A DNA stretch of 64,000 nt from a virus, in IMG/VR virus record IMGVR_UViG_3300036791_000458, positions 1-64,000 of that record, one strand, 5' to 3'. This document shows, one piece after another, positions 34,868-47,410 of the stretch. How positions within the stretch are numbered: position 1 is the stretch's first letter; every line of letters begins with the position of its first letter. Made by a program: the position numbers and the translations under genes. Under the pieces are notes generated by a model. The model worked only from the letters and a program-made list of their open reading frames with translations, did no database searches and was not told the DNA's origin.

Positions 34868-36871
34868 CTATTCTTCTTCTTCCTGACCGTCACTAAAAAC
34901 CGGAACTAGAATGCACCTGCACGATGGATGAGTATCTTCGATTGGAATCGGTGCTTCAGAAAAGTCATATGGATTGTCATCCTCAAAGTCCAAGCAAACT
35001 TCACAAACGTCAACCTCGTTGGTAGTCAAAAAATTTAGCTTAGCTATGTTTCCAGCTTCTTGCCACGCGAGAAAATTTGACTGTACCTGAGCGTTACCTA
35101 TTTCGGTTCTCGCGATATTTGCTGCTCGTTCCTCTGAGAAGGTTCCCGCGTCCTGAATCGCCTGAGTCACATCCTGTATCGATGTAGGCTCAGAGAATGC
35201 GTCGGTAATAATCCGGTTGATGTCTGACCGCGTAGTGTCTGAGATAACCCACTTTGCATTAGGATTATCTACTAGCTCACCGTCTACCCATTTCTTTCCG
35301 ACCATCTCTGCGGCTCTGTCTTGCGCGAACTGTTGGGACGCTTGATCCGCTGACGCTATCACGTCATTGTCTGTGATATTCAATTCAGTTATGCCTTTGT
35401 CTGCGCCAACGCTCGTAGCACTCTCTAAAGCATCTTGCGCGTCTTTTACTTCTTGGACTCCAGACTCAGAAATTATTGCGTCTTCTTCCGTCTCTCCCAC
35501 TTCCGCTAAAGTCTCACGAAGCGCGTCAGCGTTATCTTCCGCTTGTGTCAATAGTTCGAGTAGTTGATCATCGGTGAGAGGTGTTTGTGAAGTCGCCTGA
35601 GATACTAAACCATCTTGAAGCGGAGAAGGTAGCGCGTTATATCTATCTCCTGCGAGATTGAGTAGTCTCTGAACTACAGATGCTTGCATAGATGGTTCGT
35701 CTGCCTTGAATATTTTGCGCGTCTTTTTCACCCTGAGAGGTTTCAGTCTATCAATATGCTTACGAATGATGGAAAGAATTCTACCTTTTTGTTTCGCAAA
35801 GGCAGAAGAAACAGTATCTTGTAGCTTAGTCTGCGCGTCCGATAGCTGAGGATGCTTGTAGTCGGGATCAATCTTGATCTTATGTGCCTTTGCAATCGCG
35901 ACTTTCCTTGCGCGGTCACTGATTTTGATCTTCCTGATAGCGACTAACTTCACACGAGAAGGAACTATCTTGCGTATAGTCAAACCCTTGACAGGTACAT
36001 CTGCATCCACTTGCAGTTCATGTAAGAAGTCGCGACTCACTCTATCGCGAATTAGTGCCTTGTCTGGTATGTTCAATGAAGGGATTGCAAGAATCTGTAT
36101 TTTTTCAGGAGTAGTACCGCGAAAGTCTTTTAAGCTGCCAAATATGATAGTGTTTTGACCGCCACCCGCAGAATCTCTTCCCCACAAATAGGTGTTGTAG
36201 GAATCTTTGAGCACTGAGTCACGGTGTTCCGGAGTATCTTTGCCAACACTCATATTAACTTCGTAGTTTCTCCGGGCATTGTCTAACGCGCCATTTAAGG
36301 CACCAGCAGATAAACCACTACGTAGCTCATCTTCTCTCGCAAATTTCTCTATGGTAGAAAAATCTGGGTTATGAGCAAGTTCCGTCATCTGTTGGATGTC
36401 ACGCTGAATGTCCCGAGCATCATTTATGTTCGTAGTGAAGCTAACTGCTTTTGCCTGTCCCGAACTACCCAACCCGCCTTTATTGTCACTTGAACCTGCC
36501 TGCAATAAACCGGACTGTTGTATATCATCGCCATGAGAAGTCACGTGGTATAGTTCCGGGTACTTCACAACTGCTTCATCTTTGGACAAGGGGATGCCCT
36601 TAACTACAGAACCTTCCCCTTGTCCCGCTCGCCCAATCCACGTGTTATACGTTTCCCCCCACGACTTATTCTCTTTGATGTCGTCTTTGGTTGCATAGAC
36701 CTTTGGTTCATCTGATTCTGAAAAGCGACCATGATCATCACGTGACTGATCTTCGGAGTATTTTTTGACTGGGCGAGTAAGCTTAGTAGGTTTAGTGCGC
36801 GAAGATAAAGTAGGCAGACTTTCATCTGGTGGTGTCCAACTTCTAGCTATCAGTCTAGTTAAGTCTGCCAT
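34868..36871 (-). CDS. MuF / SPP1 gp7-like minor head protein with N-terminal tagged ART-like domain
   Basis: C-term '[10 protein letters not shown]', 'CEVC', 'HPSCRC'; N-term [14 protein letters not shown] then 'LYHVT...GL...VSFTT...E'. Start ATG 36871 overlaps the upstream TAA. Confidence 0.85.
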
Positions 36872-44483: not shown

Positions 44484-47410
44484 AGAACCTGTCTCAACTG
44501 AGGATAAGCAGTTTTCAATTGCAGGAAGGCAGCTTTCTCATCCACATCCCCGCGAATGTAAACCGTATCTGAATCCGGATCGTATGCACAGAATTTTTCG
44601 AAGCTGGAAAGGTCGCCTAGTTCCGGATGAACGAATTTGCCTTTCTCTATTTCCTTACTCATCCAAATAATTTTGGTCATTGAACGACCAAAGTTTTCAA
44701 CTAGAACTGAACCATCACTCTGTAACACGTAACGCTTCATCACGTGTCCCATAGTAACGCCCTTCGGCGCGATTCCCCATTTATTCTGGAAGTCAACTGC
44801 CTTTGTCAGAGCAGTACCTATATCAACGTTCAAACGATGAACTGGCATCGTAGTAGTTCCGTACTTTGACCTCACGTCATTCACGATAGTCGCAGCCCAC
44901 CTGTGGTGACCATCAAGCACGTAATTGTCTTTAGTCACAAATATAGGTGCTTCTGTTAACTTACCACTTTGAAGACTTGCAGCCATTCCGCTGACCTTCC
45001 AACCGTCTAACTCTCCTTGTGACGCTCGTAGATGTGACGCAAGAACGGTTTCATCTGTAGACGTGATTCCTTCGTCTTCAAGCGACCTGATAAATTGGGG
45101 GGCTAAATCAACGTATGCAGTCTTTAAATCCGCGCTCTTGGGCAGAAGTGCTGCGGCAAGTGAACCGGGCGCGGGTGAACCCGACAACTGTGGCATGTCT
45201 ACTCTTGGAATACCCAAGTTATCTTGGGCGAATAGGTTGGTTCCCGGAACCGATACTGCCGCGAGATTCCAGTTGGGAACTGTCTTACCTGCGGCCTTTG
45301 CCGCATCACCTTCTGCCTTCATCTTCTCAACTAGTGTCGCGATTTCATCCGGTTGATCTAGGGTGACATGCTTACCTTCGCCTATTAGTCTCTGTGCTTT
45401 TTCTAAGTCCTTTCCACACGCAATGGGATTCGAACGGGAACCGGGTTCGTGCGATGGCGCGTCATGAGATGCTGTGTAGTCTGGTACGCCACCTTTACCA
45501 TTTGAACTTGAACTACTCTTACTTTCGCTTCCGCCTCCGCCGTTACTGGTGAACTGTCCGCCACCTGATTCTCCTGCTGGTACTCGCGCTTGATCCTCTG
45601 AGTACTTCAACAGTTCATAGCCACCAGAGAAAGCAGAGTATAGTTCTAGTCCGCCTTCTACTTTCTCCTGCTTGTGTTTCACGTTGACGTTTACATTGAC
45701 GTTTGCACCGGGTTGCTTCTGTTTATTTCCCTGCTGTAACTGAGGTGGTTGCTTACCAGTCTTACCATTGTTCTGCTGATTTTTAGGGGAAGAGCCGCTA
45801 GCGCCGGATATCGCATCCTGATTCTTCCCCTTATCCGAGCCAGCCCCTTGTTGGTTTGGCCCAGAACTTGACTTACCGTTTCCTTTTCCGTCTTTGCCCT
45901 GTCCCGGTTCACCGGGTTTACCGAAACCACCACCACCAAACGGTGACGCGCCCGGTTGTGGAGGCGGTGTGTCCAACGGGATAAAGCCAGAAACTCCAAA
46001 CACTCCGAGCTTATCTGCATTTGGGTCGGGATATGGATCATCACCACGTCTTTTTCTAGTTTCGTTTATAGTGTTGATTTTTCCGGTAAGCAATCCATCG
46101 ATCTGTGCTTGCTTCAATGGATCAGTTTCTCTTTTGTCCTTGTGCGCGAATTCGTAGTCATCGCTTAACCCCATCTTCTTGATGATTTCGTTGTTGATGT
46201 CAACAACGAAGTTAAGCATTGGTTCTAGTCCTTCTTCATCAGCACTGTCTGACGCGACTTGAGCAGTCGCTCTATTCATCATTTTCTGGAACGCTTGAGA
46301 CGATACACTAAACGCGTAACAAACTATCTGAGCAAGCCATTCATCGATAGGGTCTTTGAGTAGTGCTTCTTTTGAGAAGACTACATTTGGGCGCGCATCA
46401 GTTGTACTCCCGCCATATCCGGGAAGGAAAGTTAAGCGACGACGCTTCGCGATATCGCCCACCATGATAGAATCGAACCACTCTTGAATCTCACGAATAC
46501 GATTCGGTTGCAGAGACGCGGGTAGAAAACATAGTGCTTCCGGTATGTTTCCGTCCGAATAGTATTTGCTTATGAACTCCTGCCTTTTTAGTCCGATACC
46601 AATCGTGATTAGTATCTGCTCAACTGGCGGATATCCGTAACGCCTATGTGTTCTTTCGTTCCTCATGACGTACAACATATCGTCGGTAGTCAAGTTACAA
46701 GCAGGGATTCCATAGACAACCTGTTGATACGCGACATCTGGTGAAGGCGGGGTCAAACCTTGATCGGTAATCACGCGTGAAACAGTTCCGCCATCGAGCG
46801 GATGGACTGACGCGATTTTCTTCTTTTTATCGCGCTCAAGATATAACGCTATCGCGTCAAGCACGAAGCAATCTTCCATCCATAGTCTTTGCCACTGTCT
46901 GTAGTTATGATAGCCATCTGGGCACGCGAAAAAAGCAGTAAGTGCTTTTATGTTCTTGTCTTCTGCTGCAGCCTTTTCTCTAGTTGCGTTTGAGTCACCT
47001 GCCTTGGTCTTCAAACGAATTTCCCAAGGGACACGAGCTATTTGATCTTTGCGCGTCTCAATAACTAAGCGAAGTATGTCCCAAGAGTCTGCAAGTGTTC
47101 TGAGAATGTCGAAGTCAATCCCGCCCTTATCATCACCGGGAGTCCAAAGCATGTTCTCACCGGGTATGAACGCTCTCTGTCTTGGGCGATAGGTAGGAGG
47201 CGCAACGGGCCTCATGGGTTGAAGCGCGGAGAACCAATAGTTGTTCGCGATATCTTCAACTGTCTGACTACCGCCTGGCGCAAGTATCTCACCTAAACCA
47301 AGCATTTGAACGCTCTGAGGAACTTGAGTAGAAGGCGATGCTCCCAGTGCTCGCACCTGCGGGGTCAACCGCTGTTTGACAGCGTCTTTAAAATTACTCT
47401 TGCCTGCCAT
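44480..47410 (-). CDS. Portal protein with C-terminal linker and tagged ParB/Srx-like domain
   Basis: 'LRLVIETRKDQI', 'YGYPPVEQI', 'YYSDGNIP', 'CYAFSVS', 'TINE.R...G.DP'; after the tag, 'IPRVDMPQ', 'LRASQ.EL', 'PIFVT.DNYVLDGHHRWAA'. Likely start ATG 47410. Confidence 0.88.
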   Translation of the reverse strand: MAGKSNFKDAVKQRLTPQVRALGASPSTQVPQSVQMLGLGEILAPGGSQTVEDIANNYWFSALQPMRPVAPPTYRPRQRAFIPGENMLWTPGDDKGGIDFDILRTLADSWDILRLVIETRKDQIARVPWEIRLKTKAGDSNATREKAAAEDKNIKALTAFFACPDGYHNYRQWQRLWMEDCFVLDAIALYLERDKKKKIASVHPLDGGTVSRVITDQGLTPPSPDVAYQQVVYGIPACNLTTDDMLYVMRNERTHRRYGYPPVEQILITIGIGLKRQEFISKYYSDGNIPEALCFLPASLQPNRIREIQEWFDSIMVGDIAKRRRLTFLPGYGGSTTDARPNVVFSKEALLKDPIDEWLAQIVCYAFSVSSQAFQKMMNRATAQVASDSADEEGLEPMLNFVVDINNEIIKKMGLSDDYEFAHKDKRETDPLKQAQIDGLLTGKINTINETRKRRGDDPYPDPNADKLGVFGVSGFIPLDTPPPQPGASPFGGGGFGKPGEPGQGKDGKGNGKSSSGPNQQGAGSDKGKNQDAISGASGSSPKNQQNNGKTGKQPPQLQQGNKQKQPGANVNVNVNVKHKQEKVEGGLELYSAFSGGYELLKYSEDQARVPAGESGGGQFTSNGGGGSESKSSSSSNGKGGVPDYTASHDAPSHEPGSRSNPIACGKDLEKAQRLIGEGKHVTLDQPDEIATLVEKMKAEGDAAKAAGKTVPNWNLAAVSVPGTNLFAQDNLGIPRVDMPQLSGSPAPGSLAAALLPKSADLKTAYVDLAPQFIRSLEDEGITSTDETVLASHLRASQGELDGWKVSGMAASLQSGKLTEAPIFVTKDNYVLDGHHRWAATIVNDVRSKYGTTTMPVHRLNVDIGTALTKAVDFQNKWGIAPKGVTMGHVMKRYVLQSDGSVLVENFGRSMTKIIWMSKEIEKGKFVHPELGDLSSFEKFCAYDPDSDTVYIRGDVDEKAAFLQLKTAYPQLRQVL

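Follow-up and report, generated by a model that had tools for sequence, protein, structure and literature searches.

Why should one short peptide head module after module along consecutive head genes of an uncultured phage, and what would the phage do with it? The question is raised by the window analysed here, a stretch of 64,000 nucleotides (positions 1 to 64,000 of IMG/VR record IMGVR_UViG_3300036791_000458), in which the same tag of about 15-20 residues heads each module in four back-to-back head genes. The answer that we prefer, with a probability of about 0.5, is that the portal protein, two polyproteins and a MuF-type protein are phage-type polyvalent proteins, that is, chains of enzymes made with the head and carried in the capsid, and that the tag would be a site at which an S78 protease cuts after lysine.

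The Tag and Its Ten Copies

The four genes that carry the tag are the following:

44480..47476, minus strand: portal protein, 998 aa; low-complexity spacer, one tag (aa 624) and a C-terminal module of ParB/sulfiredoxin fold
42495..44483, minus strand: polyprotein 1 (PP1), 662 aa; 23-aa leader, tag, 346-aa unnamed module, tag, PI3/PI4-kinase-like module
36871..42525, minus strand: polyprotein 2 (PP2), 1884 aa from a GTG start; header of about 100 aa, six tags
34868..36886, minus strand: MuF-type minor head protein; leader of 36-41 aa, tag, unnamed module of about 290 aa, C-terminal MuF-like domain

An earlier note on this DNA had claimed ten copies of K-YSEDQ(A/S)R, distributed over the portal, the two polyproteins and MuF. 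A six-frame search of the window recovered all of them, with exactly 10 YSEDQ sites, every one on the minus strand, and with the K codons where that note had placed them (45607, 44414, 43376, 42204, 40878, 40200, 39726, 38400, 37554 and 36763). When the tag was searched as a degenerate DNA pattern, 10 matches were obtained on the minus strand versus 0 for a reversed control. The copies are:

45551..45607, minus strand: copy 1, portal aa 624, VPAG..GGQF form
44373..44414, minus strand: copy 2, PP1 aa 24, D-x-HGRF form
43320..43376, minus strand: copy 3, PP1 aa 370, VPAG..GGQF form
42148..42204, minus strand: copy 4, PP2 aa 108, VPAG..GGQF form
40837..40878, minus strand: copy 5, PP2 aa 550, D-x-HGRF form
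40159..40200, minus strand: copy 6, PP2 aa 776, D-x-HGRF form
39685..39726, minus strand: copy 7, PP2 aa 934, D-x-HGRF form
38359..38400, minus strand: copy 8, PP2 aa 1376, D-x-HGRF form
37498..37554, minus strand: copy 9, PP2 aa 1658, VAAG..GGQF form
36722..36763, minus strand: copy 10, MuF aa 42, D-x-HGRF form with S replacing A

After the core, the tag continues as D(Y/D)HGRF in six of the ten copies and as V(P/A)AG-x3-GGQF in the other four. Two further observations of the earlier note are borne out: synonymous codons differ from copy to copy, and a hydrophobic-x-K motif stands ahead of every tag (10/10), the residue two before K being L, L, L, F, L, I, V, V, I and V. The leaders of PP1 and MuF terminate in L-K-K and V-K-K. 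AlphaFold2 models the leader, tag and linker with pLDDT below 30, against more than 85 for the module downstream, and so predicts an intrinsically disordered tag.

The Modules behind the Tags

The end-to-start overlap described for the four genes is found as ATGA between portal and PP1, and as TAATG at both PP1/PP2 and PP2/MuF, given ATG starts at 42495 and 36871 over the upstream GTG and TTG; these ATG codons are the likely starts of PP2 and MuF. About a dozen enzyme modules are strung along the four proteins, and the claim that a separate domain follows each tag holds true wherever the module can be named, as ParB-like, PI3/PI4-kinase-like, Zeta kinase, NMNAT-like nucleotidyltransferase, InPase or MuF.

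The portal matches Pfam Phage_portal with 43.3 bits (cut-off 39.1). Its C-terminal module matched ParB N-domains in Foldseek (best 5k5d, E 2e-4), and in the AlphaFold2 model of aa 604-998 pLDDT stays above 80 between about residues 80 and 300. The last module of PP1 matches PI3_PI4_kinase (E 2e-9), and homologues of the PP1 modules are found within other tag-bearing proteins. In PP2 the order is Zeta kinase with 2H lobe 1, NMNAT-like module, small unnamed module, unnamed region with InPase and 2H lobe 2, GNAT-like module and unnamed module; the Pfam matches are Zeta_toxin (6e-19), CTP_transf_like (2e-6), InPase (PF18823, E 1.6e-39, 135 bits) and 2H families, and in tblastn aa 1428-1623 match phage genes whose annotation is acetyltransferase or minor capsid protein. 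The Phage_Mu_F match of the MuF protein (E 3.8e-6) reaches 28.1 bits, below the curated cut-off of 29.6, and the assignment is supported by its position after the portal and by homologues in related head modules, the C-domain having homologues in 10 tag-bearing loci. With sequence profiles, and with E up to 5 for the unnamed modules, no peptidase family was detected in the four proteins.

The interpretation given in the earlier note is supported in part: these are polyvalent proteins of the head module, with enzyme chains among the head genes, the tag is conserved at the protein level, and cutting after K by the prohead protease is plausible. In the further steps of that interpretation, the YSEDQAR neo-N-terminus would act as a packaging or ejection signal, and about ten enzymes would be delivered.

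Tag and Module as a Unit

When the window is compared with its relative of 93% capsid identity, the tag-bounded modules align end to end in a changed order. The ParB-like module has a tag directly upstream in 8 different contigs, and the two tail forms interchange at orthologous positions. Capsid relatives at 59-69% identity have neither polyproteins nor tag. These comparisons show that the tag belongs to and travels with the module downstream, and that tags are points where modules swap between phages.

This behaviour invites the explanation that the tag is mainly a recombination joint, a conserved stretch of about 45 nt for homologous exchange of modules with little function in the protein. 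In its favour, breakpoints between the window and phage G001 coincide with tags, tag core and tail recombine independently, and one G001 gene opens with the remnant of half a tag. Nevertheless, codons differ between copies, and the peptide is conserved over hundreds of clusters that differ in GC content and codon usage, which argues for selection on the protein. We therefore regard this explanation as very improbable and view recombination as a by-product; the comparisons show a real tag that is selected as a peptide.

Occurrence of the Tag beyond the Window

A motif-profile search of the kind proposed in the earlier note recovered the tag from 464 protein clusters, and a single protein may hold as many as 10 copies; all 10 clusters looked up were metagenomic singletons. 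Across 442 instances the tag is highly constrained (K 90%, Y 92%, D 90%, Q 95%, R 100%, G 98%), with L, V or I two before K in 57%. In general form, the core reads (L/V/I)-x-K-Y-S-(E/P)-D-Q-(P/A)-R and the tail D-x-x-G-R-(F/W) or V-P-A-G-x3-G-G-Q-(F/W), followed by a Gly/Ser linker. Tags are placed close to the N-terminus or between modules: of 147 proteins, 77 have their first tag no more than 50 residues from the N-terminus, and only 4 have one within 30 residues of the C-terminus; leaders have a minimum of 4 residues, lengths of 0-3 never being seen, and range from 4 to 46 aa across the 66 proteins with an N-terminal tag. Searches found the tag in no cultured phage, and literature searches returned no published description of the peptide.

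Of 46 tag-bearing virus records, 28 contain the protease family of the window; among the 12 records with a completeness of at least 70%, nine do, and the remaining three have an S78_2 protease, a weak S78 match or a phrog_80 protease. As judged from these matches, all 12 near-complete phage records encode a protease of the HK97/S78 type, and the survey shows that the tag co-occurs with such head proteases in phage genomes. In other phages the tag is also embedded in protease polypeptides. The complete tag-bearing phage G034 departs from the pattern before the lysine, with T-H-T-K ahead of its tag, so that P3 is not hydrophobic, and hydrophobic-x-K is not enriched in its protease tail.

The tag is also found in bacterial chromosomes. 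In proteins of Nitrospirillum, Azospirillum, Caulobacter and Stellaceae it joins a conserved N-domain to variable, toxin-like C-termini, which in the Nitrospirillum type are DUF4329 or JAB by source names, or PF15649. The neighbours of these genes are glutaminase, DUF885, FkbM methyltransferase and similar genes together with a small downstream ORF, and no head genes lie near those of Nitrospirillum and Caulobacter. Four of the five tag-bearing bacterial genomes tested encode a protease of the window type elsewhere, and in Caulobacter sp. S45 the tag is present and such a protease was not detected. Since the same tag occurs in chromosomal toxin-like proteins, its core function need not involve a capsid; this occurrence, like G034, counts against a purely capsid-specific reading.

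The Head Protease and Its Candidate Sites

Three further head genes bear on how the tag may be processed:

16356..18431, minus strand: prohead protease, 691 aa; N-terminal domain of about 195 aa of the S78-clan serine protease type, long C-terminal extension with abundant hydrophobic-x-K
15510..16307, minus strand: putative scaffold, 265 aa, between the protease and capsid genes
13799..15388, minus strand: major capsid protein, 529 aa, matching phrog_13692 (E 4e-66)

The protease matches PHROG head maturation protease families 9427 and 80. In its family alignment His69 and Ser113 are invariant, the latter within G-F-S-x-G-G, and by analogy with the family both are predicted to be catalytic. 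The protease domain of the window itself had no Pfam match at E up to 1; among 13 aligned homologues, Pfam identified Peptidase_S78_2 in nine and Peptidase_S78 in four. By this kinship the protease is assigned to the HK97 (S78) clan. Homologues of the capsid protein adjoin the protease in 17 tag-bearing loci, and no family match was found for the scaffold.

The hydrophobic-x-K motif had been said to be dense in the protease, the scaffold and the N-terminus of the capsid protein. The excess is found in the protease (33 against 16 expected, z about 5) and in the scaffold (12 against 5, z about 3.6), but not in the capsid protein, which as a whole holds 4 against 5.9 expected; its N-terminus gives no cleavage signature, since the sequence is conserved straight through the proposed site in relatives. 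The enrichment extends to 13 of 15 related protease tails, which together hold 133 motifs versus 75.5 expected. It could partly reflect amphipathic helices, an explanation argued against by the absence of x-E and x-D enrichment, no such excess being found in the protease or scaffold for these or for other spacings. In the polyproteins the motif occurs only at the random rate, and a cut at the tag alone would therefore need accessibility or extra specificity.

In HK97, the mature gp5 protein begins at Ser104, and residues 101-103, directly before it, read F-N-K. Capsid proteins of phi12 are cut after K or R (PMC8569155). Taken together with the S78/HK97 clan of the protease and the motif in protease and scaffold, these precedents make a cut after K by the prohead protease plausible.

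A Proposed Mechanism and Its Alternatives

In the mechanism that we favour, the precursors would be inside the prohead when the S78 protease cuts them after lysine, and the same enzyme would degrade its own tail and the scaffold at hydrophobic-x-K sites. Cutting would remove the short leaders and separate the modules, each of which would then begin with the Y-S-x-D-Q... peptide as part of a flexible tail. The residues after K are strongly conserved, which shows that the tag is more than the least that cutting would require. The peptide left on the module may have a second use, for example in loading, in retention or in leaving the head together with the DNA.

That same conservation can be read in another way, with the tag as an uncut docking or handling motif. 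Some conserved part of the head (portal, MuF, scaffold, capsid interior or DNA) would recognise it, and it would either load the module or furnish an unfolded handle with which the module passes through the tail; the lysine and hydrophobic residue would then belong to the binding motif. The 14 conserved positions downstream of K far exceed what a cut site needs, modules with a gene of their own, in which nothing has to be separated, still carry the tag at the N-terminus, and a disordered tag followed by a flexible linker would suit a handle; G034, lacking both the hydrophobic P3 and the enrichment, also fits. It is hard to see, though, why leaders of only 4-10 residues should still end in hydrophobic-x-K, and none start at the tag, if the P side were not needed, and the K-specific enrichment in protease and scaffold across the lineage, together with the known preference of HK97-type proteases for K or R at P1, also speaks for cutting. 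We consider docking without a cut a possibility to be taken seriously, at well under even odds. Rather less likely, in our view, is a reading in which polymorphic toxin-like proteins generally carry the tag as a junction ahead of the effector, much like a pre-toxin motif, and the phage proteins merely share it, with a host protease, self-cleavage or a target-cell factor as processor in place of the prohead protease. The shared N-domain, tag and variable C-termini of the Nitrospirillum-type proteins, their housekeeping neighbours with a small downstream ORF, and Caulobacter sp. S45 agree with this explanation. It fits poorly with the association of the tag with head modules and S78-type proteases in virus records; moreover, the protease encoded elsewhere in most of the bacterial genomes tested may allow loading in trans, and neither a recognisable peptidase domain nor self-cleaving chemistry lies in or next to the tag.

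Relation to Known Systems

T4 internal proteins IPI-III and Alt bear a capsid targeting sequence that is cut off by the prohead protease gp21 at (L/I)-x-E; once loaded into the prohead and trimmed there, they are injected. Both systems have a short leader at the N-terminus that closes with a hydrophobic-x-charged site, where a cut is presumed here. In T4, however, P1 is Glu, the protease belongs to S77, and the part that addresses the protein precedes the cut and is lost, whereas here P1 would be Lys, the protease is of the S78 clan, and the peptide that is conserved follows the presumed cut and is found repeatedly inside polyproteins. The ejection proteins of phiKZ and SPN3US are cut at small-x-Glu sites; they are not known to have either a long conserved tag or shuffled enzyme cassettes. 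In these giant phages the prohead protease processes numerous proteins from within the head at a short consensus sequence as the particle matures, and they are ejected into the host (PMC10052503, PMC7411985). Closer in the protease itself are HK97 gp4 and other S78 enzymes, which are of the same clan; the HK97 site F-N-K|S and the K or R at P1 in phi12 resemble the lysine junction here. What these proteases are known to act on is the capsid delta domain, the scaffold and their own polypeptide; no arrays of enzyme cargo are known as substrates.

Pre-toxin motifs and MuF-linked toxins (Zhang et al. 2012, PMC3482391) share with the tag a short conserved element between carrier and variable effector. 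Processing may take place at this element, phage heads are the predicted vehicle of MuF-linked toxins, and the chromosomal Nitrospirillum-type proteins fit the architecture. The tag differs in sequence, recurs many times within one protein and precedes a wide variety of enzymes besides terminal toxins.

The nearest class is that of phage-type polyvalent proteins, which, as described by Iyer, Burroughs, Anand, de Souza and Aravind (2017, PMC5512222), hold two to fifteen distinct effector or enzyme domains per polypeptide and are predicted to be packaged and delivered at infection. With that account the present proteins have in common many enzyme domains per polypeptide, genes in the head/packaging module, fusion to portal or MuF, and InPase, 2H, ParB-like and P-loop kinase domains. 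PP2 combines Zeta kinase, 2H, nucleotidyltransferase and InPase with unnamed modules, and PP1 a kinase-like module with one unnamed module; the genes run portal, PP1, PP2, MuF with overlapping stops and starts, the portal carrying its ParB-fold module; and InPase (PF18823) is a signature domain of the class. Where the same paper proposes an in-built zincin metallopeptidase, common but not obligatory, as the processor, sequence profiles detected none here, and the candidate processing system is instead the repeated tag with the head protease. [quoted passage not shown]

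Organisation of the head genes and of the tags

The record to which the window belongs spans 76.5 kb in IMG/VR, with every gene on the minus strand. The tag, K-YSEDQ(A/S)R followed by a short tail, is carried by the products of four consecutive genes, two of which encode polyproteins (PP1 and PP2):

44480-47476, minus strand, ORF of the portal protein
42495-44483, minus strand, ORF of PP1 (662 aa)
36871-42525, minus strand, ORF of PP2 (1884 aa)
34868-36886, minus strand, ORF of the MuF-type protein

As the earlier note had described, these genes overlap end to start, through ATGA at the portal/PP1 junction and TAATG at the PP1/PP2 and PP2/MuF junctions, and such overlaps are the usual layout in translational coupling. 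The TAATG junctions make the ATG starts at 42495 and 36871 likelier than upstream GTG or TTG codons. Past MuF on the same strand come two genes for collagen-like fibres, one for a glycosyltransferase/methyltransferase, and then the genes of the head protease (691 aa), a scaffold candidate (265 aa) and the capsid protein (529 aa). The collagen-repeat fibre proteins of 1146 and 925 aa (24405-27845 and 28457-31234, minus) lie between the MuF and head protease genes, an unusual position within a head gene block. In the 993-aa protein encoded directly upstream of the protease gene (19466-22447, minus), a family-2 glycosyltransferase domain is joined to TPR and methyltransferase domains.

All ten YSEDQ sites were recovered exactly where they had been placed from the sequence, and a degenerate DNA pattern for the tag gave 10 matches against 0 for its reversed control. 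The tail is D(Y/D)HGRF after six copies and V(P/A)AG-x3-GGQF after four, synonymous codon use varies from copy to copy, and in all ten L, I, V or F stands two residues N-terminal to the lysine. Between the portal core and its tag is a spacer, about 90 residues long, in which Gly, Gln, Asn and Lys abound and which includes (N-V)x4 (45647-45919, minus).

Distribution and position of the tag

A search of 1.84 billion representative proteins with a profile built from the ten copies returned 464 clusters with E no higher than 1e-3, 99 of them with E no higher than 1e-10. The matched proteins reach 3849 aa and contain up to ten tags each; the ten clusters that were looked up were all metagenomic singletons. 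From 442 instances the consensus (L/V/I)-x-K-Y-S-(E/P/D)-D-Q-(P/A/E)-R-D-(D/E)-(H/A/R)-G-R-(F/W) was derived, trailed by about eight Gly/Ser-rich residues, with K, Y, D, Q, R and G conserved at 90-100%. In 77 of 147 proteins the first tag is at most 50 residues from the protein start; a leader (4-46 residues) is always present, and a tag falls within 30 residues of the protein end in only 4 of 147; the median tag-to-tag spacing is 255 residues.

The genomic context was read from IMG/VR and genome loci. In IMG/VR the exact local form of the tag occurs in 8 stretches and the commoner K-Y-S-x-D-Q-P-R-D in 65, some of them proviruses. Against 50,697 phage records, megablast with the 12.6-kb region gave no match and tblastn with a 36-aa tag window gave chance matches only (E at least 3). 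The tag is also absent from the cultured phages Hera, CF418P1, Caron and PSS2, which carry portal-InPase, MuF-GNAT or MuF-Zeta fusions, so that these comparisons revealed no cultured phage with a tag. In locus L062 (115-aa frame, minus), with a look-alike in L106, a leader, tag and His-rich helical domain form a stand-alone small protein, which sits between a portal-MuF fusion and the protease. A complete tag-bearing phage (G034) has a homing endonuclease gene inserted between MuF and protease (L131, 14734-15510).

The tag travels with the module behind it

The closest relative found, G001, has about eleven tags and a capsid protein 93% identical to that of the window. Between the two genomes the tag-bounded segments align end to end at 69-92% identity, and their order and ORF membership differ: the kinase module is in PP1 in the window and at the end of another polyprotein in G001, the PP2 header of about 100 aa is found on MuF in G001, and some modules are unique to one genome or the other. 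A ParB-like module is preceded by the tag in eight different contigs regardless of the upstream sequence, and the two tail forms interchange at orthologous positions. Capsid relatives at 59-69% identity have a short portal-to-capsid interval with neither polyproteins nor tag. In an AlphaFold2 model from a nine-sequence alignment, pLDDT is below 30 for leader, tag and Ser/Gly linker and above 85 for the next module, so that the tag behaves as a linear motif that is exposed and lies outside any fold. We have little doubt that the tag is genuine, occurs widely and forms part of the module that follows it. At the start of the second polyprotein of G001, a half-tag (V-A-K-Y-S-E-V...) abuts a complete one (L027, 9141-9215), and this remnant looks like a recombination scar.

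In agreement with the claim that each tag precedes a separate domain, nameable domains were found downstream: PI3/PI4-kinase-like, Zeta kinase, NMNAT-like nucleotidyltransferase, InPase and MuF. One tagged module is similar to phage acetyltransferases. The portal extension after the tag has a ParB/sulfiredoxin fold (best Foldseek match 5k5d, E 2e-4; AF2 pLDDT above 80 across roughly residues 80-300). Eight modules received no name from Pfam even at relaxed thresholds, nor did four from phmmer against PDB sequences. PP2 also contains a 2H (LigT-like) phosphoesterase in two lobes, both with an H-x-T motif (40879-41208 and 38401-38658, minus), which are split by about 750 residues bearing three tagged modules; the lobes are in separate ORFs in G001 and contiguous in a retrieved protein, P0088 (aligned residues 494-591 and 592-656). 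Another PP2 segment, D-A-T-T-S-G-I-T-T-E-T-G-L-N-T-Y-N-L-E (38674-38733, minus), is a close copy of the capsid N-arm D-A-T-T-T-G-I-S-T-G-T-G-L-N-F-Y-N-L-E (15287-15346). Hydrophobic-x-K precedes this peptide in both proteins, and the peptide itself could be a capsid-addressing element.

The head protease and the presumed cut

Homologues of the protease N-domain match Pfam Peptidase_S78_2 or Peptidase_S78, of the HK97-type head protease clan, while the window's own domain matches PHROG head maturation protease families only; the protease alignment, run as a profile against PDB, gave no match. His69 and Ser113 are invariant across homologues from tag-bearing phages. The family defined by this alignment is present in 28 of 46 tag-bearing virus records, and in nine of the 12 records with a completeness of 70% or more. 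Of the remaining three, one has an S78_2 match, one a weak S78 match and one a phrog_80-type protease adjoining the capsid gene. No ClpP-type protease was found in tag-bearing phages without the family. In G006, another tag-bearing phage, the protease polypeptide is itself tagged after an N-terminal domain of about 60 aa (L009, 2114-4207), and in an 824-aa protease ORF (L069, minus) the tag lies at aa 519, behind the protease domain. The C-terminal extension of the window protease contains a Cys/Asp-rich cluster, C-E-C-D-C-E-S-C...C-P-G-C-D-D-D-H-C (17412-17483, minus), and Cys is abundant again in a patch around aa 590-610; both may be metal sites.

The reported density of hydrophobic-x-K was borne out for the protease (33 observed vs 16 expected, z about 5) and the scaffold candidate (12 vs 5, z about 3.6). 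In the protease, neither an acidic residue in place of the lysine (hydrophobic-x-E, hydrophobic-x-D) nor other spacings nor the reverse order departs from expectation; in the scaffold candidate the reverse order shows a mild excess (10 vs 5 expected). Summed over 15 related protease tails, hydrophobic-x-K occurs 133 times against 75.5 expected, and x-E 79 times against 83. This excess is the pattern that would be expected if the protease degraded itself and the scaffold at such sites. In the polyproteins hydrophobic-x-K occurs at chance rate, and the complete phage G034 has T-H-T-K ahead of the tag and no such enrichment in its protease tail. The capsid N-terminus was rejected as a witness of the cleavage site, its leader being no less conserved than the sequence after it.

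Even very short leaders end in hydrophobic-x-K, and no protein begins with the tag, which fits an endoprotease needing P-side residues. In HK97 the mature gp5 begins at Ser104, and residues 101-103, immediately before it, are F-N-K. In the HK97-like phage phi12, capsid proteins are cut after K or R (PMC8569155). Both comparisons support a basic P1. On these sequence patterns, whether the S78 protease cuts after the tag lysine is close to an even question. The fourteen well-conserved residues after the lysine are many more than cleavage would require, and the tag must therefore have some further function.

Candidate explanations

The functionally nearest model is the capsid targeting sequence of T4, removed by gp21 through cleavage at (L/I)-x-E. 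The presumed P1 residue here is instead a lysine, the protease is of HK97 type, and the conserved part of the tag, unlike the T4 sequence, follows the presumed cut and recurs inside polyproteins. The window proteins belong to the phage-type polyvalent proteins as defined in PMC5512222, class-specific InPase domain included. The processing agent proposed there is a zincin peptidase, whereas sequence profiles found none in the window proteins. Searching that paper brought up no mention of a junction peptide, and searching the literature on polyvalent proteins and cleavage brought up no description of the tag; a text search for the tag letters gave nothing relevant either. The explanation that we favour, with a probability of about 0.5, is a polyvalent head cargo of tag-headed modules, cut after the lysine by the S78 protease inside the prohead, the retained peptide having a second role. 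That this role is loading or ejection can be put forward only tentatively from the sequence.

The most important caution on a capsid-linked reading is the presence of tagged proteins in bacterial chromosomes. When prokaryotic genomes were scanned, one for each species, the tag turned up in 29 stretches, mostly of Alphaproteobacteria (Nitrospirillum, Azospirillum sp. B4, Afipia, Caulobacter, Rhodoblastus, Stellaceae). Some are head modules: in Rhodoblastus acidophilus DSM 137 the portal homologue itself is tagged, and in a Solibacteraceae MAG contig a small tagged ORF lies beside MuF, protease and capsid homologues. In Nitrospirillum, Azospirillum, Caulobacter and Stellaceae, chromosomal tagged proteins of 300-440 aa (stop-to-stop frames) consist of a shared N-terminal helical domain of about 130-200 aa, the tag and a variable C-terminus, in some cases named DUF4329 or JAB by the sources and in one carrying PF15649. 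Their neighbours include glutaminase, DUF885, FkbM methyltransferase and a small downstream ORF; the layout is polymorphic-toxin-like (compare PMC3482391). Several copies of the family per genome are seen in Nitrospirillum and Caulobacter (L103, L107, L110, L112, L115, L119, L120, L128). Four of the five genomes with such proteins that were tested have a protease of this family at another place in the genome, as do Nitrospirillum iridis DSM 22198 and N. amazonense, so loading in trans would be possible. On a further reading, the tag would be a portable address to load, cut and deliver: any tagged protein would enter the proheads of the lineage, be freed by the S78 protease and be received by the next cell, and the toxin-like proteins of Nitrospirillum and Caulobacter would be loaded in trans into particles of a resident prophage or gene transfer agent. 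We consider this extension improbable. A side possibility of this reading concerns the stability of the delivered enzymes. The presumed cut is followed almost always by Y, F, L or W, to which the bacterial ClpS N-degron pathway responds, so these enzymes might be short-lived by design; the acidic residues that come next argue against strong ClpS binding.

Implications

Phages carry proteins into the host along with their DNA, and to our knowledge the addressing and separation of large, fast-changing enzyme sets in the capsid is known only for T4 and giant phages. With the tag also present in chromosomal toxin-like proteins, one may ask whether phage and bacterial systems share one processing or delivery step; if the portable address were true, phage heads would serve to deliver bacterial toxins. 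The idea can be tested in cultured strains that have tag-bearing loci (Rhodoblastus acidophilus DSM 137, Nitrospirillum iridis DSM 22198 and N. amazonense). As an address, the tag would explain the exchange of modules and would offer a means of bringing selected proteins into capsids. Heading hundreds of unrelated modules, it would also be a sequence-readable label for cataloguing injected phage effectors, among them NAD and nucleotide enzymes, kinases, ParB-like nucleases and acetyltransferases.
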